A stretch of 64,000 nucleotides of DNA from assembly GCA_045401115.1 (NCBI GenBank), contig CP174359.1, positions 291,247-355,246 of the forward strand, in the 5' to 3' direction. Source of the DNA: Candidatus Phycocordibacter aenigmaticus. GTDB lineage: Bacteria > Patescibacteriota > Minisyncoccia > Phycocordibacterales > Phycocordibacteraceae. The notes under the pieces were generated by a model, which ran no database searches, had not been told where the DNA came from, and was given only the letters and a program-made list of their open reading frames with translations. Of the stretch, positions 17,326 to 35,201 are shown piece by piece (positions within the stretch are counted from its first letter, which is position 1; each line of letters starts with the position of its first letter). Both the position numbers and the translations under genes were made by a program.

Positions 17326-18024
17326 ATGGATTGGCTCCATTTTTTAAACCTTCAGTATATCTATTGCGTTATATACTCGTTCTTTGGTAACGAGTGTAAC
17401 GATGTGGGCGGTTTTGGTAATGACGGCAGTTTCGGCAATGGTGGTAGTATCGCATCTACAACACCAAGCGCCGGTGGAGGTGTGTTGGACCAAATAGGCG
17501 AGGTATTTTTTTCAGTATTTAGTACGTTAGGAAATTTCTTCTCGCCATTGATAAAGTCGATCTGGGGTTTTTACAGTGGTCTGGCGTGGGGTATTTCTTT
17601 CTTTCTTTTTTTAGTGATGATATTTGCACTCGGGAGTCTGTTGTTTATTCGGCTGCGTGAAATTAACAAATATGGCACCTTACCGCCTGAAACCGAAAAG
17701 GAATCAATCCGCACGGCGCGGTGGGAAGAGTTGCTTGAAGAAACAATGGTCACCGATCCAAAGCGATGGCGCCACGCTATTCTTGAAGCCGACAGCATGT
17801 TGGGTGAATTATTAGAGCGTCTTGGGTATGCTGGCGCGACCACTACGGATAAAATGCGCTCTCTACCGGAAGACGCGTTCGTGACGGTACCGGTTGCTTG
17901 GGAAGCACATCGTATTCGAAACTTTATTTCCGCAGGTTCCAGCGATTTTATTTTGACCCAACGCGAGGCGTTCCGCGTGATGAAACTGTACGAACAAGTA
18001 TTTGAAGAATTTCACTTTATATAG
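17326..18024 (+). CDS. hypothetical membrane protein (Gly-rich N-terminus, one TM, conserved C-terminal helical domain)
   Basis: Intact ORF. The hydrophobic segment is followed by a charged domain. No family recognised. Confidence 0.35.
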   Translation: MDWLHFLNLQYIYCVIYSFFGNECNDVGGFGNDGSFGNGGSIASTTPSAGGGVLDQIGEVFFSVFSTLGNFFSPLIKSIWGFYSGLAWGISFFLFLVMIFALGSLLFIRLREINKYGTLPPETEKESIRTARWEELLEETMVTDPKRWRHAILEADSMLGELLERLGYAGATTTDKMRSLPEDAFVTVPVAWEAHRIRNFISAGSSDFILTQREAFRVMKLYEQVFEEFHFI

Positions 18025-18108
18025 GTCTTATAAAAATTGCGCGGAGGTGAGGTAAGAAGGGTGGTTATTGAAATTGATTAAAAACCGCGATATGATACTG
18101 TCTACCGT

Positions 18109-18182
18109 AGCGGGGTGGAGGAGAGGTACCTCGGGAGGCTCATAACCTCCAGGCCCTGGTTCGATTCCAGGCCCCGCAACCA
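18109..18182 (+). tRNA. tRNA-Met/Ile2 (anticodon CAT), CCA encoded, 1:72 mismatch (A:A), short D-loop
   Basis: Manual fold: acceptor GCGGGG/CCCCGC, D-stem GAGG/CCTC, anticodon stem GGAGG/CCTCC with loop CTCATAA, T-arm CCTGG-TTCGATT-CCAGG, then A-CCA. Confidence 0.6.
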
Positions 18183-18664
18183 CGAAAAGAAATTACATAG
18201 TAATTTCCTCGTGGCGAGCCATTGGGCGAGCTACGAGTAAAAATCCCTGCTGTGCAGGGATTTTTATATTTTTGTGAGCCCCGTGATTCGCTTAGCGAAT
18301 TCTACGAGGCACATAGTTCGTATACAATAAAACTATGTCTTTTTATTATGTATATGTTTTAGAAAATGAAAATGATAAAAGTTGGTATATTGGATACACA
18401 CCAGACTTAAAGCGTAGAGTAAAAGAACATCAAAATGGGAAAGGTGGACGAACCACAAGCCTTAAAAGTGGTTGGCAACTTATGTACTATGAGTCCTATC
18501 GCAACAAGAAAGATGCGGTAGGACGTGAACAGTTTCTCAAAAGTGGTTCAGGTAGGCGATTTTTGAAAAAGCAATTAGCGCACTATCTTGGTTCACAAAA
18601 GTAACAGAGTTCTCCTGTAACAGGAGAATTTTTGTGGCGCTTCCAAAAAGTGAGATAGCGAAGC
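18183..18664 (+). mobile_element. about 480-bp insertion at the 3-prime end of tRNA-Met carrying a GIY-YIG nuclease gene, bounded by a 19-bp direct repeat of the tRNA 3-prime end (TCCAGGCCCCGCAACCACG)
   Basis: The tRNA 3-prime end plus 2 nt is duplicated at 18665-18684. A terminator hairpin follows immediately, as expected for the original tRNA terminator. Internal hairpins are at about 18240-18268 and 18609-18633. Confidence 0.45.
18335..18604 (+). CDS. GIY-YIG nuclease family protein (small, YhbQ/UPF0213-like)
   Basis: YVYVLE...WYIGYT (GIY-YIG), a conserved Arg (KRRVKEH), Glu (REQF) and Asn. 89 aa. Confidence 0.7.
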   Translation: MSFYYVYVLENENDKSWYIGYTPDLKRRVKEHQNGKGGRTTSLKSGWQLMYYESYRNKKDAVGREQFLKSGSGRRFLKKQLAHYLGSQK

Positions 18665-18684
18665 GTCCAGGCCCCGCAACCACG
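18665..18684 (+). repeat. direct repeat of tRNA-Met 3-prime end (attR-like copy)
   Basis: Exact 19-20 nt match to 18164-18184. Confidence 0.6.
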
Positions 18685-18688
18685 TTAT

Positions 18689-18720
18689 AAAAACACCGGA
18701 CATATATCCGGTGTTTTTTA
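18689..18720 (+). terminator. rho-independent terminator AAAAACACCGGA-CATATAT-CCGGTGTTTTTT
   Basis: Perfect stem followed by a T6 run, read from the sequence. Confidence 0.7.
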
Positions 18721-18744
18721 AATAACGAAGTCGAGTGAATATCT

Positions 18745-19131
18745 CTACGCAATAAACCCTACATACGTTAAGAACGCTCCCAGAACAATAGCGAGCACAC
18801 TCCATCCCATAGTCACTTCTCGTGAGGAGAATATTTTTGCGAAACCAACAATAGTGTTATGAGGAAGAAGGAATAGTGCAGCGCCTTCTATGATGGCGAT
18901 CCATCCTATAAGAGAGATTATTATCTCTGTGAATGTGCCCCATACGTTGTGGCTGATTACTATCAAAAGTCCGATAATCAGCGCCAATGCGCCGTCAAAA
19001 TAAGGGAGAAGGTAACTTCGTGTCGCCTCAGAAAGCGCCTTTTGCATACGTGCCGGGTAGAGTAGGCCGGACAGGCCACCAACAAGCGCATAAACGCCAA
19101 ATATTTTAGCGATAAGTAGTGTTATATCCAT
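18745..19131 (-). CDS. hypothetical small membrane protein (4 TM)
   Basis: Hydrophobic 128-aa ORF with no overlapping alternative. Confidence 0.4.
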   Translation of the reverse strand: MDITLLIAKIFGVYALVGGLSGLLYPARMQKALSEATRSYLLPYFDGALALIIGLLIVISHNVWGTFTEIIISLIGWIAIIEGAALFLLPHNTIVGFAKIFSSREVTMGWSVLAIVLGAFLTYVGFIA

Positions 19132-19280
19132 AGAATTATGTTAAAGGTAGTTACAATAATACCTTTCTATTCATGGTAGCAGGAAAATATGTATGCACGT
19201 GTGGGGGTGTTAGTAGTGATGGCTGTGTCGAATGTTTATTATTTTATTTCTATACCAGTGATATAATGATATTAATACTT

Positions 19281-19973
19281 ATGTCTAAACCCAGCGAAAA
19301 AAAACATGCAATTGCATTGCGGAGGAAAGGTTTCAGTATTAAGGATATTGCTGAAAAAGTTGGTGTTTCTCGAGGGTCGGTAAGTGTTTGGGTCCGTGAT
19401 ATTTCACTGTCAGGAAAACAACGCGCGCGTTTAAAACAAAAAATGATTGATGGCGGTCATGCGGGGAGACTTGCTGGAGCTGCTTGGAATAAACAGCAGC
19501 GCCTTATTAGGCTCGCAAAACATAAAGAAAATGCTCTACAGAAAATTAAAAAAGTTTCCACTCAAGATTTATTTTTTCTTGGTCTCGGTCTTTATTGGGG
19601 CGAAGGTTTTAAGTCCGAAAAGGCTTCGGCAGGCTTTTCGAATTCAGACCCGCGAGTTATTAATGTGATGGTTGTATGGCTTGAGCAATGTATGAATATT
19701 CCACGTGATAGATTGCGGATGCAAATATTCATTAGTGATACTCACCGAGGGCGAGCTCAGGTGATTGAAAGGTATTGGTTAGAGGTTACAGGTCTCCCAA
19801 AGAGTCAATGTGCTAAAATTATTTTTTTACCTAAAACTAAGAAATTTTATGAAAATAAGGATTCATACTATGGTGTGTGTACAATACGAATTCTCAAAGG
19901 GACTGAAATTAGGGATAGAATTAATAGCTTAATTCAACGCACTTTTGATGTGCATGGACAATATAGGAGGTAA
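19281..19973 (+). CDS. HTH domain protein with a LAGLIDADG-like motif (LGLGLYWGEGFK); possible homing-endonuclease-derived protein
   Basis: N-terminal HTH (GFSIKDIAEKVGVSRGSVSVWVR). About 60 aa later GLGLYWGEG aligns to LAGLIDADG, with Glu at the catalytic acidic position. It sits directly upstream of a tRNA-Met gene. Confidence 0.4.
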   Translation: MSKPSEKKHAIALRRKGFSIKDIAEKVGVSRGSVSVWVRDISLSGKQRARLKQKMIDGGHAGRLAGAAWNKQQRLIRLAKHKENALQKIKKVSTQDLFFLGLGLYWGEGFKSEKASAGFSNSDPRVINVMVVWLEQCMNIPRDRLRMQIFISDTHRGRAQVIERYWLEVTGLPKSQCAKIIFLPKTKKFYENKDSYYGVCTIRILKGTEIRDRINSLIQRTFDVHGQYRR

Positions 19974-19996
19974 TGTAGTACTCTCTACAATATATT

Positions 19997-20069
19997 GCCG
20001 GTGTAGTTCAACGGTTAGAACGAGGGACTCATAAACCCTAGACGGAAGTTCGACTCTTCCCATCGGCAC
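19997..20069 (+). tRNA. tRNA-Met-type (anticodon CAT; could be initiator, elongator or Ile2-lysidine), CCA not encoded
   Basis: Acceptor GCCGGTG/CATCGGC, D-arm GTTC-AACGGTTA-GAAC, anticodon loop CTCATAA, T-arm GGAAG-TTCGACT-CTTCC. Confidence 0.6.
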
Positions 20070-20076
20070 AGATCAT

Positions 20077-20259
20077 ATGTCAGAGAAATATAATAGAGAA
20101 AAGGACTCAACTGTTTGTACTGAGTGTGGTGGTACCGGTGAAAAAGATGTAAATGATCACACATTCGTTGGTGGTTTTTTTGGAATGATAAAAAGAGGGG
20201 TTGAAAAATGTGAAGGCTGCCGCGGTCACGGCACCACAAAAGGGCCGAGACAAAAGTGA
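20077..20259 (+). CDS. small zinc-ribbon protein (two CxxCxGxG motifs, DnaJ-type zinc-finger-like)
   Basis: CTECGGTGE...CEGCRGHG in a 60-aa ORF. Confidence 0.3.
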   Translation: MSEKYNREKDSTVCTECGGTGEKDVNDHTFVGGFFGMIKRGVEKCEGCRGHGTTKGPRQK

Positions 20260-20274
20260 TACACTAAGTAGTAT

Positions 20275-20538
20275 ATGGATCCCATAACGATACTTGGTGT
20301 ATGTGGTGCGAGTATTATTTTAATCTTCTTTCTACTCAATCAACTCAAAGTGCTTTCTGTTGAAAGTATTTGGTACGATAGTGCAAATCTCCTTGGTTCC
20401 GGCATGCTCATTATTTATGCATACCTTATTGGGTCATTACCGTTTATTATTTTAAATGTCGTATGGTTTCTTTTTTCATTCAAAGATGTGGTTGCTTATT
20501 GGACACGAAAAGAGTCCCCACTGAGTGTTGATAAATAA
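20275..20538 (+). CDS. hypothetical small membrane protein
   Basis: Two predicted TM helices. 87 aa. Confidence 0.3.
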   Translation: MDPITILGVCGASIILIFFLLNQLKVLSVESIWYDSANLLGSGMLIIYAYLIGSLPFIILNVVWFLFSFKDVVAYWTRKESPLSVDK

Positions 20539-20557
20539 ATGCTAAACTGACCGTTAT

Positions 20558-21514
20558 ATGGAAATTTTGATTTGGGGAGGGGTTTTTGTGGTTTCTCTTG
20601 TCGCTCTTGTTAAAGGAGCAGACTGGGTTCTTGATAATTCAAAGAAAATTGGACTCGCGCTCGGCCTCTCTCCGTTTATTATTGGTGTGGTAATTCTTGG
20701 TTTTGGTACATCCGCTCCAGAATTAGTCTCTTCTATTTTCGCGGTGTTACAAAAGGCGACAGAAATTCCAGTTGCGAACGCAATTGGCTCTAATATCGCC
20801 AATATCCTCTTAGTCGTCGGTTTATCGGCAGTAGTGGCACGAGGAAGGTTTGAAGCCACTAAGAGCCTCATTGATCTTGAGATCCCGTTACTAATACTCG
20901 CCACCTCCTATTTCTTTGGTGTTGCTTATGATGGTGTGGTAACTCCTGTAGAAGGTATATTTTTATTGGCTGGTTTCGTAGTATATATTCTCTATACATT
21001 GCTTTCAGGAAATGGGGAGTCAGCGGTTGCTGCACTTGAAACTGAAGAAGAAAAAGCAGGTAAACGAATTACGCTTTCTGATATTTTCTTTCTTGTTGTC
21101 GGTTTTGCACTGTTAATCTTTGGTGCTCAATACCTTGTTGAATCAGTATTAGTACTTTCTCAATCACTTGGCATTTCAGTCGGCGTTATTACATTATTAG
21201 CGGTAGCACTTGGTACATCACTCCCGGAATTGGTGGTGTCAATTAAAGCAGCGCTCAGTGGTAACGCCGAAGTATCTATTGGAAACATCTTTGGCTCCAA
21301 CATTTTCAACCTCCTTTTGGTAGTAGGTGTTCCGGCGTTGATTACACCGCTTGCGATTGATACAGTAACGCTTACTGTGGCGTTGCCAGCGATGCTAGTA
21401 GCAACTATCCTCTTTGTTATCTCAGGCCTCTCTCAACGTATTCATTCCTGGGAAGGCATGTTCTACCTCCTCCTCTATGCGTTGTTTGTCGCTAAGATAT
21501 TTGGTTGGGCGTAG
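20558..21514 (+). CDS. CaCA family sodium/calcium exchanger (YrbG-like)
   Basis: Two alpha-repeat signatures, GTSAPEL and GTSLPEL, and about ten TM helices. Confidence 0.85.
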   Translation: MEILIWGGVFVVSLVALVKGADWVLDNSKKIGLALGLSPFIIGVVILGFGTSAPELVSSIFAVLQKATEIPVANAIGSNIANILLVVGLSAVVARGRFEATKSLIDLEIPLLILATSYFFGVAYDGVVTPVEGIFLLAGFVVYILYTLLSGNGESAVAALETEEEKAGKRITLSDIFFLVVGFALLIFGAQYLVESVLVLSQSLGISVGVITLLAVALGTSLPELVVSIKAALSGNAEVSIGNIFGSNIFNLLLVVGVPALITPLAIDTVTLTVALPAMLVATILFVISGLSQRIHSWEGMFYLLLYALFVAKIFGWA

Positions 21515-21638
21515 ATTGTTCTCAATTCGGTATATATTGAAAAGAAGTCGTTTTTAGGGTATCTTTTGGGAACTGCCGAAAGGTGGTAGTGACTGTTTGT
21601 GGGTGTAAGCGTTGGTTTGCACCTACAGGTATTTATTT

Positions 21639-21665
21639 GCGGGTGTAAGGAAACCTTGCGCCCGC
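21639..21665 (+). repeat. hairpin GCGGGTG-N14-GCCCGC that mimics the tRNA-Asp 5-prime end (copy 1)
   Basis: TTGCGGGTGTAAG recurs at 21637, 21783 and, as GGGTGTAAGCG, at 21601. The true tRNA begins TTGCGGGTGTAGCTC at 21847. Confidence 0.4.
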
Positions 21666-21784
21666 GGCGAGTTGAGAGAATACACTTCCTTTTTTCCGGC
21701 GCGGCAGTGAGAATGTAAACAAGCTTCCATTCTCACTTTGCTTGGAAAAACCGCGTATTCTCGTTAAACACTTGCGGGTGTAAG

Positions 21785-21810
21785 TAAATCTTTCACCCGC
21801 TGCATTCGGA
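21785..21810 (+). repeat. hairpin GCGGGTG-N12-CACCCGC that mimics the tRNA-Asp 5-prime end (copy 2)
   Basis: Perfect 7-bp inverted repeat, read from the sequence. Confidence 0.4.
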
Positions 21811-21849
21811 AATAATGTGAAAACAAGTTTTCCCGTTATATTCCTCATT

Positions 21850-21923
21850 TGCGGGTGTAGCTCAGATGGTTAGAGCGTCCGCCTGTCACGCGGAAGGTCG
21901 TGGGTTCAAGTCCCATCACTCGC
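21850..21923 (+). tRNA. tRNA-Asp (anticodon GTC)
   Basis: Acceptor GCGGGTG/CACTCGC (with a G-U pair), D-arm GCTCAGATGGTTAGAGC, anticodon stem TCCGC/GCGGA with loop CTGTCAC, T-arm GTGGG-TTCAAGT-CCCAT. Confidence 0.8.
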
Positions 21924-21927
21924 GCAT

Positions 21928-21954
21928 AGAAAAAACCGCCGTTATGGCGGTTTT
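21928..21954 (+). terminator. rho-independent terminator AAAAAACCGCCGTTATGGCGGTTTTT
   Basis: Read from the sequence. Confidence 0.7.
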
Positions 21955-21955
21955 T

Positions 21956-22099
21956 GTGCGAGTGATGGGACTTGAACCAGAAAGGGGGTCGGGGGAACTG
22001 GGTGTTCCCCCGTGGAGGAGTTAGGCCGCAGGCCGTCATAGAACCGTGGGTTCTATGAGCGCAGCGAAGCAAGCAGTGAAACTCCCATCACTCGCGCAT
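21956..22099. repeat. about 145-bp palindromic element bounded by inverted copies of the tRNA-Asp 3-prime end (GCGAGTGATGGGA...TCCCATCACTCGC), with internal hairpins; MITE-like or att-scar
   Basis: The left arm is the reverse complement of the last about 22 nt of tRNA-Asp. The right arm is a direct copy of the last 16 nt. Internal hairpins GGGGGAACTGGGTGTTCCCCC and ATAGAACCGTGGGTTCTAT. Confidence 0.45.
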
Positions 22100-22101
22100 T
22101 A

Positions 22102-22143
22102 AATAATACAACCCGGATACGAAAGTATTCGGGTTGTATTATT
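22102..22143. repeat. exceptionally long perfect hairpin (19-bp stem, GAAA loop)
   Basis: AATAATACAACCCGGATAC-GAAA-GTATTCGGGTTGTATTATT, read from the sequence. A further inverted, diverged copy of the tRNA-Asp 3-prime end follows at 22147-22175. Confidence 0.6.
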
Positions 22144-22215
22144 TAACAGTGATGGGGGACTTGAACCCGTAGGGGATACAAAACGGTTTTATGTGTAGTG
22201 TGTAGACGACGGCAC

Positions 22216-22806
22216 TCAAAAAGTGTAATTATGTTTTTCAGTTGGTAAAACAGGTGGGGTAGGGCTATGAATATTCTCCATAGCACCAAAAGGTACACGG
22301 AACACAATACGTGCGGTCTCGAACATTGCAACAAGGCCGGTCGTATAAAGCACGTCTCCAATTAACATATTACGAAAAAATGGAAGACCAAGTTCATATG
22401 CGTAAAAAAGACCAGTGACACTTTTTTCATACCACGGCGAGAGTGCCCACACTGCGCCGTTAGTCACTATGAAGAAAATCACTGACGAGGCAAAAAGTGA
22501 AAGTCCAACTGGGACAACATTGCGATGCGTCCGTGTTATCCAACTTATACACGCAATGAGTGCGAATGATCCATACACCGATGCCATTATTTTCCAATCA
22601 TAAAAACCAATAAGTAAATCTGAGGCAAGTAGCGCGAGAAGAGGGAGCGCTATTGCCCAGCGTCGCCCAAGATACATAGCGCCAACAAACGCAATCGCCG
22701 TTATAGGTGTCATGTTTGGCATATGTGGCGCGAGGCGTAACAAGACGCCTAAGATAAGAAGCGTGCCGGCGATGAGTATAATGTGTTTTTGTGTAAGGTG
22801 TGGCAT
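22216..22806 (-). CDS. hypothetical integral membrane protein (5-6 TM, about 196 aa), possible small-substrate transporter component
   Basis: Hydrophobic ORF. It lies beside the DUF4430, PduO and NrdJ cobalamin module. Functional link is inference only. Confidence 0.35.
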   Translation of the reverse strand: MPHLTQKHIILIAGTLLILGVLLRLAPHMPNMTPITAIAFVGAMYLGRRWAIALPLLALLASDLLIGFYDWKIMASVYGSFALIACISWITRTHRNVVPVGLSLFASSVIFFIVTNGAVWALSPWYEKSVTGLFYAYELGLPFFRNMLIGDVLYTTGLVAMFETARIVFRVPFGAMENIHSPTPPVLPTEKHNYTF

Positions 22807-22820
22807 AGATATATTGGTGT

Positions 22821-23258
22821 TTAGAATTCGGACAGTTTAAATTCCCACTGAATATGATCACCTTCAGTAACGATGAGTGCATCAGCTCCTATTTGAGGCA
22901 TGATTCCGTTCACGGTGTACTGCCAATATCTCTTTCTGTCTCCATTTTTTTTATCACCTATCTGGGTAACAAGTGTACCGAGTCCATCGTATGTCTCAGT
23001 AGTAACCTTTAGTTGGTCGTTCTCTTTATCAAGTGTGAGGAGTACGTCGAGTATAGTCGCATCACCTTTAACACGTATTGATTCATCTTGATACATACCT
23101 TCAATAGAGATAGAGATGGTCTGCTGTTCTGTGGTTATTTCCTGTTGTTCCGTGTCACGAGGTAACTCTATCCATCCTGCGAAGAGCCAGATACCCAGTA
23201 GAGCAACAGCGAATGCAAGGGTGATGTTACGTAATAGTGTTTTTTGTTTCTTTTTCAT
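22821..23258 (-). CDS. DUF4430 domain protein (transcobalamin beta-domain-like, putative corrinoid-binding), N-terminal signal/TM
   Basis: C-terminal ...RYWQYTVNG...GADALIVTEGDHIQWEF pattern characteristic of DUF4430. The likely start is MKKKQ (upstream in-frame residues look non-coding). Confidence 0.5.
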   Translation of the reverse strand: MKKKQKTLLRNITLAFAVALLGIWLFAGWIELPRDTEQQEITTEQQTISISIEGMYQDESIRVKGDATILDVLLTLDKENDQLKVTTETYDGLGTLVTQIGDKKNGDRKRYWQYTVNGIMPQIGADALIVTEGDHIQWEFKLSEF

Positions 23259-23268
23259 ATATGTATTG

Positions 23269-23808
23269 TTATGAGTATGTCGGTGATGACTCTTGTACGT
23301 CATCTTTATGTGCGGTATATCGCGCAAGTGCATAGAGTAGACTAGAAAGTCTGTTGAGATATATTTTCGATGTTTGGTTGATATCGCATTGCATACGTGC
23401 TCGTAATACATTACGCTCCACACGTCTTGCTACAGCACGCGCGTAGTCAAGAAACGCTGATGATGCAGTTGAGCCAGGTATGACAAAGGAGTTTGGGTTT
23501 TTCACAATACCCTCTACTGTCTCAATAACATATTCTATGTAGGTCACATGTTCATGAGTCACTTCTTTGTACGCCCCGGCAATCTCAGCTTGGATGATGA
23601 ATAAGTGTTCTTGGACATTTTTTAGTACGTCTGCGGTGTTAATAGGTGTTTCAGTACTCTCGCCGTGAGATGCGCGGTACAATCCCAAAAGTGAATTTAA
23701 TTCATCAACACTGCCAAGTGCTTCGTACAGCACATCATCTTTAGCGAGACGTTTTTTAACCCCAAAGAGTCCTGATGTGCCATTGTCTCCAGTCTTGGTG
23801 TAAAACAT
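23269..23808 (-). CDS. PduO-type ATP:cob(I)alamin adenosyltransferase
   Basis: N-terminal MFYTKTGDNGTSGLF, about 180 aa, helical-bundle family. Confidence 0.75.
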   Translation of the reverse strand: MFYTKTGDNGTSGLFGVKKRLAKDDVLYEALGSVDELNSLLGLYRASHGESTETPINTADVLKNVQEHLFIIQAEIAGAYKEVTHEHVTYIEYVIETVEGIVKNPNSFVIPGSTASSAFLDYARAVARRVERNVLRARMQCDINQTSKIYLNRLSSLLYALARYTAHKDDVQESSPTYS

Positions 23809-23813
23809 ACTAG

Positions 23814-26132
23814 TTATTTTTCTTGAGGAATAACATCATCGATATCACAAGTACCACCGGCACAGGCGAGCTCTTGTTTTTGCTCTGTCTCATCAGTATG
23901 TTCGTATAAGACAAGTTTTGAGTAATCAATTGTTGGGAATGTTTTCATACGTTGTTCATACTCCTCTTTCGTTATCGCTTCATATGGCGCGAGTTGATAC
24001 ACGTGATCGAAGCGGGGGAGGAACGAGAGTCCGCCAACGATTCCCCAATTTTTTTGTATCCAATCAACAACGCTGACCCATTCATGCGCACTTATCGAAA
24101 CAGTCGCTGAGGGGTTATGTTCCGTATAATGTTCTTTTACTCGTTTCCAATACTCAAGCTGTTCAAGTGCGGTGAAGTCGTCTTTACACCGTGCCCCTTC
24201 CGGCGCACGTACGGGAAATTCAAGAACATACGTGTGTGCAGTATCTTTCGATTGCCCAACTTCTGGGTGGTAGGGCACTCCCTGTGCTTTAAGCATTTTA
24301 AAGAGTGAGTCTGTTGCAGATATTCTCACGCGCCGTACGTAGTACGGTGCGTGTCGTGGGTGAATACCGGAAGAACAGTCGAATGTTTGTGAGACGGTTC
24401 CTGAGGGTTTCACTGCAGTAACTGCCATAGATGGTTGTATACCGAATCGTTGCGCGTATTCAGCATTTGTCTTGACCGCAACATCACGTATCGCACGCAT
24501 CGTCTCTGGTTCGCGTGCTACCGGACTATCCCACTGGCCGGTCACCGATACGCCTAGAAGTCGCTCCTCCGTACAGTGTGTTTCCCATTCTTTTGAGATG
24601 TACTTGAATGTAGTGAGTGTTGATTGGTATGTGCCGAGCAGGGCCGCAATACGTGCTTTGCGAATTAGGTCTTCCTGTGAGTCGTGAGCGCGCGCAATAA
24701 CTTCTGATAGGTTACAAAATTGTTTTGATTGCAAGATTATTTCACCACATGGGTTTGTGCCAATAGGTCCTCGCACCACTCCGTCTGTGCCGATAAAGCC
24801 GACCCGAGAGAAATATTGTTTACGTCGCTCAGGGAGGCTGTTATTGAGGGATCCGCGGTTGAAAATACCGCGCTCACCAGATCCAGATTTCATCAGCGCA
24901 ATCCACTCTTCTAATAACTCTTCATTTGTTGGTGTTGTTTCATACACCGCAGAGTTATTTGCCACAGTTCGCTGTGGCTCATTGAGATAAAATTGCCCCT
25001 TCTTGGCGTCACGCATATCAGTGTCATCTAAATCTGAAAGACTTATCATTGCCGTACGCCGTACTCCACCGGAGACAACACATTCACCGATTTTGCAGAT
25101 AATGTCGTGTACATCAATTGATCGAAGTCGACGTCCTTGGCGTTTGAGTATGTGGTCACGCGCAAAGGAGAGTAGGGCGCGCAAGGGTTCTGGACCTGAC
25201 GCCTTACCTCCCATTGTTTTTAATCGTGCCCCCGCAGGGCGAATGAGTGAATAATCAAAAGAAATATCAGCACCGTTGTACCATGCAGTGAGTCCTGCGG
25301 TGAGTGCATCACACCATCCTTCTTTTGAATCGGCGACTGTATGCACGGAAGGTTTGTGTCCGGTCTGTTTTTTTATTTGAGGGAGACGCTCAACATTGTC
25401 ACTTTCAACTGAAAATCCAACCCCGCACCCTTGCATCGAGAGATACATTATCTCAGCGAAGTCAGTGAGCGCAGCGGGGGCAATAAACGTGCAGTTGTAT
25501 GCGCATGTATTACATCGGCGCGCAGGATCACCGGCAAATTGCATAAGGCGCATTGACGGCATGACTTCTTGGGTAAGAATGGCTTCTTGAACCTCAGTGT
25601 ACTCTTTGTTTGTTAACAGTGTGCCGAGGTTTTCATGCATAAAGTCCATATAGCGTGCAACCGTTTCAACCCACGTTTCGCGACGACCTTCTGACTCAAT
25701 CCACCGAGCATAGGTGCGCAGATAAATAAATTCTCCGAGTGGATTATGGGCAAAGTGTTTTTTGCTCTCTTTATGTAGAGCGCGCACATGTTCAGGGACG
25801 GTGCCATTTTTTTCTCGCGTTTCAGCGCGTTCAGACCGATAGAGAATATACGCTTTTGCTGTTTTAAGGGCCCCTGCTTTCATAAGTTCAAGCTCTACGG
25901 CGTCTTGTATATCTTCGACGGTGGGGATGGCACGCTTTGTTCTTGTGTAACGAGCGCATAGCCGTGCTTCCACTGCAGTGGCAATTTGTGTTGCGTTGGC
26001 AATAGCCTGTTCACCGGACGCCTCCATAGCTCGCTGTATAGCAGAGATAATTTTTTCTTGTTGGAAAGGTGCTTTTGCACCACTTCGCTTAATAATGGTG
26101 GTGAGTGAAGCTGTGGATTGTATTGATGACAT
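23814..26132 (-). CDS. nrdJ: adenosylcobalamin-dependent (class II) ribonucleoside-diphosphate/triphosphate reductase
   Basis: 772 aa. Active-site NPCGEI loop, multiple conserved Cys, a C-terminal Cys pair (CAGGTCDID). No adjacent nrdB. B12 enzymes are adjacent. Confidence 0.85.
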   Translation of the reverse strand: MSSIQSTASLTTIIKRSGAKAPFQQEKIISAIQRAMEASGEQAIANATQIATAVEARLCARYTRTKRAIPTVEDIQDAVELELMKAGALKTAKAYILYRSERAETREKNGTVPEHVRALHKESKKHFAHNPLGEFIYLRTYARWIESEGRRETWVETVARYMDFMHENLGTLLTNKEYTEVQEAILTQEVMPSMRLMQFAGDPARRCNTCAYNCTFIAPAALTDFAEIMYLSMQGCGVGFSVESDNVERLPQIKKQTGHKPSVHTVADSKEGWCDALTAGLTAWYNGADISFDYSLIRPAGARLKTMGGKASGPEPLRALLSFARDHILKRQGRRLRSIDVHDIICKIGECVVSGGVRRTAMISLSDLDDTDMRDAKKGQFYLNEPQRTVANNSAVYETTPTNEELLEEWIALMKSGSGERGIFNRGSLNNSLPERRKQYFSRVGFIGTDGVVRGPIGTNPCGEIILQSKQFCNLSEVIARAHDSQEDLIRKARIAALLGTYQSTLTTFKYISKEWETHCTEERLLGVSVTGQWDSPVAREPETMRAIRDVAVKTNAEYAQRFGIQPSMAVTAVKPSGTVSQTFDCSSGIHPRHAPYYVRRVRISATDSLFKMLKAQGVPYHPEVGQSKDTAHTYVLEFPVRAPEGARCKDDFTALEQLEYWKRVKEHYTEHNPSATVSISAHEWVSVVDWIQKNWGIVGGLSFLPRFDHVYQLAPYEAITKEEYEQRMKTFPTIDYSKLVLYEHTDETEQKQELACAGGTCDIDDVIPQEK

Positions 26133-28550: not shown

Positions 28551-28830
28551 TGAGGAAACCTGGAGCCGTTGCCCGGGCTTGAACCGGGGACCTCATCCTT
28601 CGCTTACACCTCTCCTTTATGTATACGAGAGGGCTAGACTGTATCTTCATCCAATCTAAGGATTGGATGCCCTTGTCAGTCGTTCGGGCCTGAAAGTAAA
28701 ATTTCATGCCACGGTCTGAGCCCCTCAAGGCCTTTAACCGTTATTCGGGATTCATCTCAACATTACTATTGAGATGGGCAGGGGTGTGCGACCCACCATG
28801 GATGCGCTCTACCGACTGAGCTACAACGGC
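28551..28830 (-). tRNA. tRNA-Thr (anticodon GGT) interrupted by a 204-nt intron between anticodon-loop positions 36 and 37; exons 28795-28830 and 28551-28590
   Basis: Exon 1 is GCCGTTG-TA-GCTCAGTCGGTAGAGC-G-CATCC-ATGGT. Exon 2 is AA-GGATG-AGGTC-CCCGG-TTCAAGC-CCGGG-CAACGGC-T-CCA. Acceptor and anticodon stems pair perfectly and the loop reconstitutes as AUGGUAA. Confidence 0.6.
28591..28794 (-). ncRNA. putative self-splicing group I intron within tRNA-Thr(GGT)
   Basis: Follows exon U36 and ends in G (omega-G). Contains the S-element-like AAGAUACAGUCU (consensus AAGAUAUAGUCY). Size is comparable to the about 205-nt Azoarcus tRNA-Ile intron. No ORF inside. Confidence 0.45.
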
Positions 28831-34526: not shown

Positions 34527-34625
34527 ATAATCTATATTATTAATCTGTAATAGTTACAGTATACCGTACACCTTTAGTATGCCTGTAGTTGAAATAAACC
34601 CTTTTTTCAGCTACTCTGCCTTTAT

Positions 34626-34651
34626 TGCCGGATTGTCTAATGGTGGGAATG
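34626..34651 (+). repeat. truncated 5-prime pseudo-copy of tRNA-Gln (first about 25 nt) running into a hairpin
   Basis: TGCCGGATTGTCTAATGGTGGGAATG versus the intact gene TGCCGGATCGTCTAATGGCAGGACG. Confidence 0.5.
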
Positions 34652-34716
34652 AAAAAGAATCTGCTTTCTTTTTCATCCGGTTCCATTAGGAAATCGCGGT
34701 TGTTTGTGAGTTTAGT

Positions 34717-34787
34717 TGCCGGATCGTCTAATGGCAGGACGCTTGGTTCTGGTCCAAGAAATCGGGGTTCGAGTCCCTGTCCGGCAA
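34717..34787 (+). tRNA. tRNA-Gln (anticodon CTG), U1:A72, 3-bp D-stem
   Basis: TGCCGGA-TC-GTC-TAATGGCAG-GAC-G-CTTGG-TTCTGGT-CCAAG-AAAT-CGGGG-TTCGAGT-CCCTG-TCCGGCA-A. Confidence 0.75.
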
Positions 34788-34811
34788 CTAAGGCCACAAA
34801 CCCGCGATAGG

Positions 34812-34856
34812 GGTTCTGGTCCAAGAAATCGGGGTTCGAGTCCCTGTCCGGCAACT
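34812..34856 (+). repeat. direct duplicate of the 3-prime 45 nt of tRNA-Gln (anticodon loop to acceptor end), att-like
   Basis: GGTTCTGGTCCAAGAAATCGGGGTTCGAGTCCCTGTCCGGCAACT is repeated 22 nt downstream of the intact gene. Confidence 0.6.
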
Positions 34857-34860
34857 AGAG

Positions 34861-34886
34861 AAAAAGCCGCTTTAGCGGCTTTTTTG
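34861..34886 (+). terminator. rho-independent terminator AAAAAGCCGCTTTAGCGGCTTTTTT
   Basis: Read from the sequence. Confidence 0.7.
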
Positions 34887-35201
34887 TTGCCGTACAAGAA
34901 CAGTGCCTGCGCACTGTTCGAGGGACTCGAACCGCCGGAGGCATGTCGCGCGCAGCGGAGCGAGCACGAAGCCGAGGCGTGGCCCGCGGTCGTTATGAAT
35001 TTTCTTACCTTTAGGTAATAAAATGAATTACGAACCGTCAGGCTCTAGCCCTGTCCGGCAGCATCTTAGGGCACCGTGACCGAAGAGGGTCATTGCCCAA
35101 GAACCTATTCTGAAATTGCATACCTGTTGAGTGCAGTAACCAGACAAAAAACCACCCAAATGGGTGGTTTTTTGTTTTTGTCTCTTAAGTTAATTAGCGC
35201 T

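Follow-up and report, generated by a model that had tools for sequence, protein, structure and literature searches.

Structured elements beside a tRNA-Asp gene of Candidatus Phycocordibacter aenigmaticus carry copies of the tRNA ends

Why should a single tRNA gene be surrounded by copies of its own two ends? This question is raised by the tRNA-Asp locus of Candidatus Phycocordibacter aenigmaticus (Patescibacteriota), which was analyzed here within a 64,000-nt stretch of contig CP174359.1 (assembly GCA_045401115.1, positions 291,247–355,246 of the forward strand), referred to below as the window; all positions are those of the window, and the loci and contigs compared with it are cited by handles beginning with L. 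With moderate confidence, we regard the tRNA-Asp gene as ordinary and intact, with small structured elements, typical of this lineage of Patescibacteria and lacking open reading frames (ORFs), on both of its flanks, and copy-repair insertion started by a nuclease as the most likely mechanism by which these elements arose.

Copies of the tRNA ends around tRNA-Asp

The initial annotation, made from the sequence alone, described the locus as saturated with copies of the tRNA ends, and these copies are real and far beyond chance. The sequence TTGYGGGTGTAAG occurs upstream at 21597, 21637 and 21772 and in the tRNA itself at 21849; in total it has six matches in 64 kb against 1.4 expected, and none of 100 shuffled sequences reached six. 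An inverted copy of the tRNA 3′ end, at first given as exact over 21956–21978, is exact over 21 nt (21958–21978; chance expectation 0) and reaches 24 nt at 96% identity over 21955–21978. The direct copy CCCATCACTCGCGCA, first placed at 22083–22099 as a 16-nt match, is exact at 22084–22098 (three matches versus 0.07 expected) and extends to 19 nt with one mismatch from 22080. The diverged inverted copy at 22147–22175 was found as described. The predicted folding of the region is much stronger than that of shuffled sequence (z-scores of −8 to −10). The locus seems saturated with its own ends because each element carries both a direct and an inverted copy of the adjacent tRNA end.

The features of the gene and of its downstream side are as follows, where X1, X′ and X2 are the three copies of the repeated tRNA end and Y1 and Y2 are hairpins.

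21851–21925, + strand: tRNA-Asp(GTC) gene, intact (ARAGORN; 71 bits with Rfam); its 3′ part is the repeat copy X1
21931–21955, unstranded: bidirectional intrinsic-terminator hairpin Y1, center of a palindrome of ~75 nt formed with the tRNA 3′ end and the inverted copy
21955–21978, + strand: X′, inverted copy of tRNA positions ~52–75 (24 nt, 96%)
21981–22058, + strand: core of the downstream family, with hairpin 1 (21990–22012), GTGGAGGAG, GGCC-GCA-GGCC and hairpin 2 (22036–22058, loop CCGTGGG)
22059–22079, + strand: linker GCGCAGCGAAGCAAGCAGTGA, holding a GCGAAGC mini-hairpin motif at 22064–22070
22080–22098, + strand: X2, in which the tRNA 3′ end is repeated in direct orientation, beginning in the T loop (position 57) and ending with the discriminator base plus CA; it pairs with X′ and closes the element
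22099–22146, unstranded: second hairpin Y2, with 22-nt arms that are 95% complementary and a GAAA loop; start of a second, truncated unit
22147–22215, + strand: diverged inverted copy of the tRNA 3′ end (22147–22175) and a remnant that reaches the stop codon of the DUF6580 gene; interpreted as an older unit in decay

The complete unit thus consists of a palindromic terminator hairpin, the inverted tRNA 3′ end, a core of two hairpins and a direct 3′-end copy that starts in the T loop; the stretch between X′ and the direct copy is GC-rich, structured and ~100 nt long. No core was detected in 22147–22215 by profile search. We lean towards the view that the downstream side holds one complete unit (21927–22098) and one decayed unit (22099–~22215) of a dispersed family. 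The locus is adjoined by an antiporter gene (20558–21514), whose product shows 100% identity to a protein of the metagenome-assembled genome Patescibacteria group bacterium UBA2163, and the gene order downstream of tRNA-Asp was different in every relative compared.

The assembly of the locus is independently supported. Two Logan assemblies from two samples (L001 and L002) match the window exactly over 17558–22003 and 22009–25806. Both contigs stop in the loop of the G/C-rich hairpin at 21990–22012, and the 5 nt at 22004–22008 have no independent confirmation. The contig ends are probably due to coverage or sequencing trouble at this hairpin, although they may also reflect a population variant. 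Since both contigs stop inside the element, such repeats break short-read assemblies.

Several other identities of the downstream unit were considered and rejected. No tmRNA or tRNA-like gene was found on either strand by ARAGORN, and the T stem was not kept in the inverted copies. The Rfam covariance models, run over 21500–22300, matched the tRNA itself and otherwise generic long-hairpin (microRNA) models far below threshold; no Rfam 15 family (tRNA, tmRNA, ribozymes, small RNAs) came near its gathering score for the element at the window locus or in L003, also at permissive thresholds. A primer-binding site for tRNA-primed reverse transcription was discarded, since the complement is without CCA and the fetched loci showed no reverse transcriptase gene in the vicinity. 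For a small ORF with the start GGAGG...ATG/GTG, neither frame nor peptide is conserved among the copies, and this possibility was dismissed. A group IIC intron does not fit either: the unit is ~145 nt long (versus >600 nt), there was no Rfam intron match in 21500–22300, and the GTGCG that follows the terminator simply complements the end of the tRNA.

The linker motif belongs to the type GCGNAGC (GCGAAGC, GCGGAGC, GCGCAGC, GCGTAGC), which recurs at the corresponding place before X2 in other family members, and also in the variable core part and within T-loop copies (L003, L004, L108, window 22064–22070 and others). The oligonucleotide d(GCGAAGC) forms an unusually stable DNA mini-hairpin, and the recurrence of the motif hints at a single-stranded DNA stage.

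A dispersed core and its flanks

The family to which the core belongs was found by alignment of the window unit with units behind tRNA-Met (L003, L004) and tRNA-Arg (L026); a MAFFT alignment of four whole downstream regions was uninformative, and motif-anchored extraction gave a usable one. The shared core is ~80 nt long and has the form GGGGTCGGG(G)AAAC, loop, GTTT(C)CCCGTKGAGGAAGGCAGTGAG, variable part and GAGCGTYGGAAAACCGTGGGTTTCCRA. Both hairpins covary among 23 aligned cores, with 99.2% of cells paired and double changes in 6 pairs, a value that was reached in none of 500 shuffles. The single-stranded CGTGGAGGAAGGCAGTGAG and the loop ACCGTGG are almost invariant. The core of the window is a diverged member, and the best independent support for its membership is the compensatory change of hairpin 2 (TCATAGAACC/GGTTCTATGA versus TTGGAAAACC/GGTTTCCAA); the nhmmer values obtained for it (E = 3.6e-28 and 1.5e-8) are not independent support because the profiles include the window sequence.

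A total of 32 cores were identified in Patescibacteria and metagenomes. Seventeen follow a tRNA (Met, Arg, Phe, Gly, Glu, Asp) or transfer-messenger RNA (tmRNA) gene of the same orientation at a distance of 38–80 nt, ~3 more adjoin truncated tRNA or tmRNA ends, and ~10 are located elsewhere; every tRNA-linked core is co-oriented with its tRNA. In 911 kb of sequence that was not selected for the core, all four cores present follow tRNAs. A scan for the invariant 21-mer matched 27 metagenome contigs and no viral contigs. A sister family is represented by at least 10 units within 13 kb of L026, where each of the five tRNAs is followed by 1–3 co-oriented units. The initial annotation had set its own reading against that of an ordinary transcribed spacer without further copies; other copies do exist, and orthologous sites are polymorphic. 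No description of these Patescibacteria-wide element families was found in the literature searched, and they are apparently undescribed so far. One contig (L100, Ga0055476_10064952) contains a circularly permuted core, in which the arms of hairpin 1 lie at opposite ends and form the closing stem; this could be a trace of a circular or tandem intermediate.

The same layout was found at every core: X, hairpin, inverted X, core, X. X′ ends 4–11 nt before the core, X2 begins 3–20 nt after it, the two pair with each other, and the third copy, X1, is located upstream. X′ mirrors X1 and not X2, and X1, Y and X′ together form one long palindrome of 20–39 Watson–Crick pairs. The closing stems of 12–13 bp have the length of an acceptor plus T stem. 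X represents the first 8–27 nt of a longer direct repeat of 10–62 nt, which in L106 spans the whole unit: behind a tRNA-Asp whose 3′ end is close to that of the window, this contig carries two tandem units with 100% identity (1349–1661) up to the contig end, each consisting of 3′ end, terminator, inverted copy and core. The left edge of the direct repeat falls at tRNA or tmRNA positions 52–61, in the T arm, in 25 of 26 cases.

The interior is shared and the flanks are local. One core occurs with differing flanks, each matching its own site, at genes for tRNA-Met, -Arg, -Phe, -Gly, -Glu and -Asp, at tmRNA and at ~10 non-tRNA sites. Among the latter, L089 has CCCCAATTCGA / TCGAATTGGGG / CCCCAATTAC, L098 has a 34-nt repeat, L103 has a duplicated 5′ end of an apparent RNase H gene (judged by its translated N-terminus only), and L091 and L092 have copies at the 3′ ends of ORFs. 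Since the core remains the same and its flanks always equal the local target, each repeat is derived from the insertion site or matched to it. In our somewhat guarded opinion, the tRNA ends found in repeat are therefore junction sequences templated on the target rather than intrinsic ends of the element.

Orthologous sites may be empty or filled, as comparison with relatives demonstrated. In L005, 31 nt separate tRNA-Met1 from tRNA-Met2, and the leader of tRNA-Asp has only ~45 nt, without hairpins and module; the sites in L003, L004 and the window are filled. The tRNA-Met site of L003 contains a 174-nt insertion bounded by CTGGGCCCCGCAACAAG, the second copy of which retains an L005-like trailer. 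At tRNA-Met1, the window has a cassette with a nuclease gene, L003 and L004 have an element without ORF, and L005 has nothing.

Leader hairpins, other tRNAs and GIY-YIG nuclease genes

Upstream of tRNA-Asp, the repeated sequence had been taken for the first 11 nt of the tRNA in three or four copies. There are three copies plus the tRNA itself, and what they share is 2–4 leader bases and tRNA bases 1–9; thereafter the copies read AAG versus AGC in the tRNA. Two of them had been assigned to hairpins; in fact, all three are 5′ arms of hairpins. The stems GAGAATAC/GTATTCTC and GTGAGAATG/CATTCTCAC are present as annotated, nested between copies B and C. The upstream features are the following.

21537–21565, + strand: promoter-like site TTGAAA-17-TATCTT for the tRNA-Asp unit, from a consensus scan; putative promoter
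21594–21631, + strand: hairpin A, with the 5′ arm TTGTGGGTGTAAG, a single-mismatch copy of the tRNA 5′ end
21635–21665, + strand: hairpin B, composed of ATTT, GCGGGTGTA (tRNA −4 to +9), AGG-AAA-CCT and TGCGCCCGC; its 12-bp stem mimics the acceptor stem
21672–21773, + strand: conserved leader module of ~100 nt, with an outer stem (21676–21683/21756–21763), a U/A middle stem, and an inner hairpin (21706–21737) with the loop GTAAACAAGCTTCC
21774–21800, + strand: hairpin C, GCGGGTGTAAG-TAAAT-CTTTCACCCGC, which occupies the usual position of the tRNA start relative to the module
21801–21850, + strand: short degenerate second module and ATTT leader, with a hairpin containing GAAAACAAGTTTTC in the predicted fold and with the direct repeat TGTAAACAAGCTT / TGAAAACAAGTTT

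The block TTGAAA...GGTATCTTTTGG also precedes tRNA-Asp in L003, L004 and L005. As the promoter-like site is located upstream of all insertions, everything up to 21850 would be transcribed as pre-tRNA leader. A promoter within the leader module was rejected, there being no conserved −10 or −35 element.

The design of hairpin B, with a locus-specific acceptor sequence, was also found upstream of tRNA-Thr(GGT) of the window, tRNA-Met of L003, tRNA-Asp and tRNA-Met of L004, and tRNA-Met, -Asp and -Thr of the Kaiserbacteria genome L006. Homologues of the leader module directly precede tRNA-Thr(GGT) in the window, tRNA-Met2 and tRNA-Asp in L003, tRNA-Asp in L004, and tRNA-Thr and tRNA-Asp in L006. 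A profile built from the window Asp and Thr, L003 Met2 and Asp, and L004 Asp modules recovered the two L006 sequences, which were not members of it (E = 5e-17 for Thr and 1.4e-5 for Asp). Compensatory changes were found in 20 of 30 pairs of the module, and three helices covary. In the other loci, from four genomes, the module ends 2–11 nt before tRNA +1. At tRNA-Asp of the window it ends at copy C, and the real tRNA begins 77 nt further on, behind the short degenerate module; the upstream units are therefore stacked.

The upstream copies follow the local tRNA (GCGGGTG in the window, GCGATCG in L004, GCGGTCG in L006). They stop exactly at tRNA base 9 in 15 of 19 cases, and the complement of the 5′ strand of the acceptor follows in 9 of the 19. 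The interiors of the upstream hairpins are conserved between L003 and L004 (TGACG...GTTCA).

Architecture like that of tRNA-Asp was found elsewhere in the window, at tRNA-Gln, tRNA-Met1, the left edge and an intron-containing tRNA-Thr. The tRNA-Gln gene (34717–34788) is preceded by a 24-nt copy of its own 5′ end, and its 3′ half, from the anticodon arm onward, is repeated exactly over 46 nt at 34812–34857; further parts are a bidirectional terminator, a T-arm copy in inverted orientation, a stretch rich in GC and another direct copy of the 3′ end (35049–35060). Within the same locus (34625–35062), 22 nt of complementarity between leader and trailer (34702–34723 / 34780–34801) lengthen the acceptor stem, and a hairpin is inserted inside the inverted tRNA copy of the downstream unit. 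Positions 1–210 of the window are an element of the downstream type, the tRNA of which must sit just to the left; the part at 76–142 is 97% identical to contig L110 from another metagenome and 93% identical to L026, which suggests a third dispersed family. A 194-nt group I intron (28601–28794) splits the anticodon loop of the tRNA-Thr(GGT) gene (28560–28830, − strand), for which reason the gene was missed by ARAGORN and at the Rfam gathering thresholds; the spliced sequence was called as tRNA-Thr(GGT), and Rfam Intron_gpI scored only 19.5 bits (E = 0.007). This gene is preceded by the leader module and three hairpins, the 5′ arms of which are GCCGTTGTAAG-like and correspond to its own 5′ end.

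A systematic scan covered 74 tRNAs of the window, its relatives and GTDB Patescibacteria loci. An upstream copy of bases 1–9 was found at 12 tRNAs, a downstream direct copy of bases 61–72 at 9 and an inverted copy at 6; the reversed-sequence controls gave 4 and 1 matches. The geometry was recurrent, with inverted copies placed shortly after the terminator (+33 to +52) and direct copies further downstream (+154 to +198). Inverted copies of just 5–8 nt flank the terminators of tRNA-Asp in L003 and L004 and of tRNA-Met1 in the window.

The tRNA-Asp units are without an ORF, and the GIY-YIG domain is known from the cassette behind tRNA-Met1. This cassette (18183–18684) lies between two exact 19-nt copies of the tRNA 3′ end (TCCAGGCCCCGCAACCACG), the second of them 500 bp downstream. 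Its ORF (18335–18604) encodes 89 amino acids with a single GIY-YIG domain (PF01541, E = 5e-17); the protein is of the UPF0213/YhbQ type (PDB 1zg2). More than 200 homologues were found, and those with a named source organism belong to Patescibacteria. In all six independent clusters inspected, a tRNA of the same orientation precedes the GIY-YIG gene by 84–177 nt; it is Met in two clusters and Gln-UUG, Gln-CUG or Asn in three others, and in the sixth cluster it is represented by the 3′ exon of a tRNA with an intron. The cassettes share a conserved palindromic left end, CCNCGTAAAA-hairpin-CACGNGG, directly after the discriminator base. An exact repeat from the T loop to the 3′ end brackets the gene in two clusters, with 18 nt in L123 (AAGTCCCGTCGACTGCGC, after the stop codon) and 19 nt in the window. 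The right end of the window cassette is the same 24-nt sequence (TTCCAAAAAGTGAGATAGCGAAGCGT) as in the ORF-less elements at the orthologous site of L003 and L004. The cassette is sporadic at a conserved site, being present at tRNA-Met1 of the window and absent from L005.

In L123 (94–744), an ORF of the LAGLIDADG_3 family was observed inside an apparent tRNA intron, with the GIY-YIG cassette following the 3′ exon, so that two nuclease-type genes are associated with one tRNA. In the window, ~1.8 kb (18183–19996) separate two tRNA-Met genes that are 31 nt apart in L005. This local insertion hot spot contains the GIY-YIG ORF, a membrane-protein ORF of 128 amino acids on the − strand and a helix-turn-helix protein of 266 amino acids (19173–19973); assignment of the last to LAGLIDADG endonucleases found no support in Pfam or PHROGs, which show the helix-turn-helix domain only.

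Origin of the units and likeness to known systems

The presence of GIY-YIG genes in the same niche and with the same duplication from the T loop to the 3′ end suggests insertion by nuclease-initiated copy-repair. A nuclease, for which the small GIY-YIG protein is a candidate, would cut or nick the tRNA gene in the T arm. Strand-displacing repair synthesis would re-copy the tRNA end and thereby produce the direct repeat. The new strand would then fold back at a hairpin and copy the displaced strand up to the break, giving the inverted copy; this step predicts that the outer edge of the inverted copy coincides with the start of the repeat, as is observed. The core would be copied in from another site, after which synthesis would resume at X. 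The tRNA would stay intact because its end is duplicated, the new palindrome would serve as a bidirectional terminator, and insertions in the leader would leave with it through RNase P. Such a pathway of break and copying would explain why X′ and X2 share a boundary, why the palindromes are long, why the tRNA is preserved and how tandem arrays arise.

Several points weigh against this pathway. No single route covers all junctions: the unique sequence between X1 and X′ at non-tRNA sites and the difference between Y1 and Y2 in old copies are unaccounted for. The GIY-YIG protein consists of a single domain without a DNA-binding domain and had no PHROG match, and we know of no cleavage activity or target for it. 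No autonomous element carrying the core was found in the 9% of the genome covered. The seemingly orthologous tRNA-Met cores of L003 and L004 are almost unchanged, while the antiporters of L003 and L004 are each ~72–76% identical to the window protein (each compared with the window and not with the other), and X1, X′ and X2 all follow a T-stem change of the tRNA. These observations point to selection on the resident copy, through a host or RNA function, and not to purely selfish insertion. That the leader module is conserved between genera, and at a constant distance from tRNA +1, also suggests a function.

The most serious alternative, to which we give about a quarter of our belief, is a role of the elements as functional RNA within the transcription unit of the tRNA. 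In this case, leader module and acceptor-mimicking hairpins would guide or regulate 5′ processing, for example as RNase P substrates, as decoys or as a pairing switch that involves the 5′ strand of the tRNA. The downstream units would act as small RNAs, made by read-through or independently, the active part being the purine-rich strand GGAGGAAGG or the complement CCUUCCUCC; as their closing stem of 12–13 bp copies the minihelix of acceptor plus T stem, tRNA-processing enzymes could excise or tag them. Such a role would agree with the covariation of both core hairpins and three leader-module helices, the near-invariance of CGTGGAGGAAGGCAGTGAG and the ACCGTGG loop, the common orientation of all tRNA-linked copies (with units at five of five tRNAs in L026), the module end fixed 2–11 nt before tRNA +1 in four genomes, the mimic hairpins that follow acceptor-stem changes among orthologues, and the near identity of the L003 and L004 cores despite the deep divergence of the genomes. 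However, orthologous sites may lack the elements (L005), about one third of the cores lie away from any tRNA and still carry local target copies, identical tandem copies and truncated remnants occur, no Rfam family matches, and G·U versus A·C mismatches (31 versus 19) show no clear strand preference. The views of a mobile element and of a functional RNA are compatible if the elements were later exapted.

Stacked attachment (att) scars, i.e., remnants (attL/attR, similar to cis-mobilizable elements, CIMEs) of repeated integration and loss of tyrosine- or serine-recombinase elements at the tRNA, were one of the two origins proposed in the initial annotation, and we now consider them improbable. 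Identity blocks at tRNA att sites classically are direct repeats from the T or anticodon loop to just past the 3′ end; the direct repeats found here start in the T loop, or in the anticodon loop for the 46-nt tRNA-Gln copy, and also run just past the 3′ end, and the variable gene order behind tRNA-Asp is in line with integration. The direct repeats and their stacking are thus accounted for. The inverted copies, the shared core and the copies at non-tRNA sites are not. Pfam showed no integrase or recombinase domain in the few window ORFs near the locus to which it was applied, the remainder of the window being unscreened, and none appears in the precomputed Pfam assignments of the genes called in the fetched loci. 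The units measure just 130–180 bp, an inverted copy abutting the core is no product of att recombination, and copies also occur at tRNA 5′ ends and protein-gene ends. One near-identical core is found at no fewer than seven tRNA/tmRNA species with matching flanks, and attP cannot retarget so fast. The reading therefore fails on the lack of a recombinase where one was looked for, the single core for many tRNAs and the inverted copies.

A similarly improbable origin would require no dedicated element: template switching during replication at the terminator palindrome and at the palindromic T-loop sequence TTCGAA, with direct-inverted-direct triplications that drift afterwards. Such structures are a known product of template switching at forks, and X1, Y and X′ do form a near-perfect palindrome centered on the terminator loop (20–39 Watson–Crick pairs); the inverted copies of 5–8 nt at the terminators of tRNA-Asp in L003 and L004 and of tRNA-Met1 in the window would also fit. 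This process cannot yield a core of ~80 nt common to unrelated loci and organisms (with up to 97% identity between a window element and another metagenome), nor can it produce hairpins that covary, or the interiors that L003 and L004 share in their upstream hairpins; we give it little credence.

The classical miniature inverted-repeat transposable element (MITE), with fixed tRNA-derived terminal inverted repeats and moved by an insertion sequence (IS) transposase that makes a short target-site duplication, is very unlikely: the 145-bp palindromic element (21955–22098) of the initial annotation, in which the region was called MITE-like, does belong to a dispersed, multi-copy, ORF-less and strongly structured family with inverted-repeat ends and a conserved interior (32 cores; at least 10 sister-family units in 13 kb of L026), but it has no tRNA-derived terminal repeats of its own, since the end repeats are copied from each target and vary by site, the direct repeats are 10–62 nt or longer instead of 2–10 nt, a third, upstream target copy is always there, and no related transposase or parent IS was found in the loci read, where only the GIY-YIG cassette shares its right end with the family.

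Returning to copy-repair insertion, the units may, as a tentative proposal, represent a new class of miniature elements with an insertion chemistry of their own, ends rebuilt from the target, entry at the T arm and a GIY-YIG protein of the UPF0213/YhbQ type as nuclease; and/or the cores and the leader module may be new tRNA-linked structured RNAs, whose minihelix mimicry would admit RNase P, RNase Z or the CCA-adding enzyme. Patescibacteria (candidate phyla radiation, CPR) have genomes among the smallest and most streamlined, and a large share of their tRNA genes appear to carry structured units. If the units are mobile, they would insert harmlessly beside essential genes by means of the duplicated gene end and the new terminator, and widespread tiny GIY-YIG proteins without a known role would gain a testable function. 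As functional RNAs, they would amount to two or three new motifs linked to tRNAs, and with clear covariation. In either case, the units create pseudo-tRNA fragments and mark synteny breakpoints in metagenome-assembled genomes.

Among known systems, the GIY-YIG endonuclease SegB of T-even phages cuts inside tRNA genes and shows statistical co-localization with them, and it drives local tandem duplications via breaks and recombination at microhomologies (PMC13096335). The cassettes of Patescibacteria similarly have a GIY-YIG gene among or behind tRNA genes, with local duplications. However, SegB is a two-domain Seg protein of phages, whereas the proteins found here are cellular, of the single-domain UPF0213/YhbQ type with 85–89 amino acids, and their cleavage activity is predicted by analogy; for SegB, no structured cores without ORFs and no inverted copies of the target are described.

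The integrative elements of tRNA and tmRNA genes and their remnants (attL/attR, CIMEs) likewise insert at the 3′ part, restore the gene by a direct repeat from the T loop or anticodon loop and stack in tandem. The units described here differ from them in their size of 130–180 bp, in the extra inverted copy, in the use of one core for many tRNAs, in the copies at tRNA 5′ ends and protein-gene ends, and in that no recombinase was found in the loci read. MITEs, Correia elements, REP/REPIN, RUP and ERIC are also short, ORF-less, multi-copy, strongly folding and intergenic, often at gene ends, and some of them are terminators; their ends are fixed and their target duplications short or missing, whereas the present units have ends copied from the target and three target copies.

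With IS200/IS605 and palindrome-associated transposable elements (PATE), the units share two similar direct subterminal hairpins, a sequence adjacent to the left hairpin that is complementary to the target and the right end, and a fixed orientation. In IS608, the guide–target pairing covers 4–5 nt and there is no duplication, in contrast to 8–27 nt and long direct repeats here; no Y1 transposase turned up, so that the likeness is architectural only, and the long duplications argue against membership in IS200/IS605 PATE. Template-switch and fold-back rearrangements also give X, X′, X with an inverted segment bounded by palindromes (terminator, T-loop TTCGAA), but they are sporadic and without conserved cargo, whereas a conserved structured core is always found here at the second junction. 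The units thus combine features of known kinds, namely tRNA-targeted insertion, MITE-like repeats and nuclease-driven duplication, with the insertion chemistry and the RNA role put forward as proposals.

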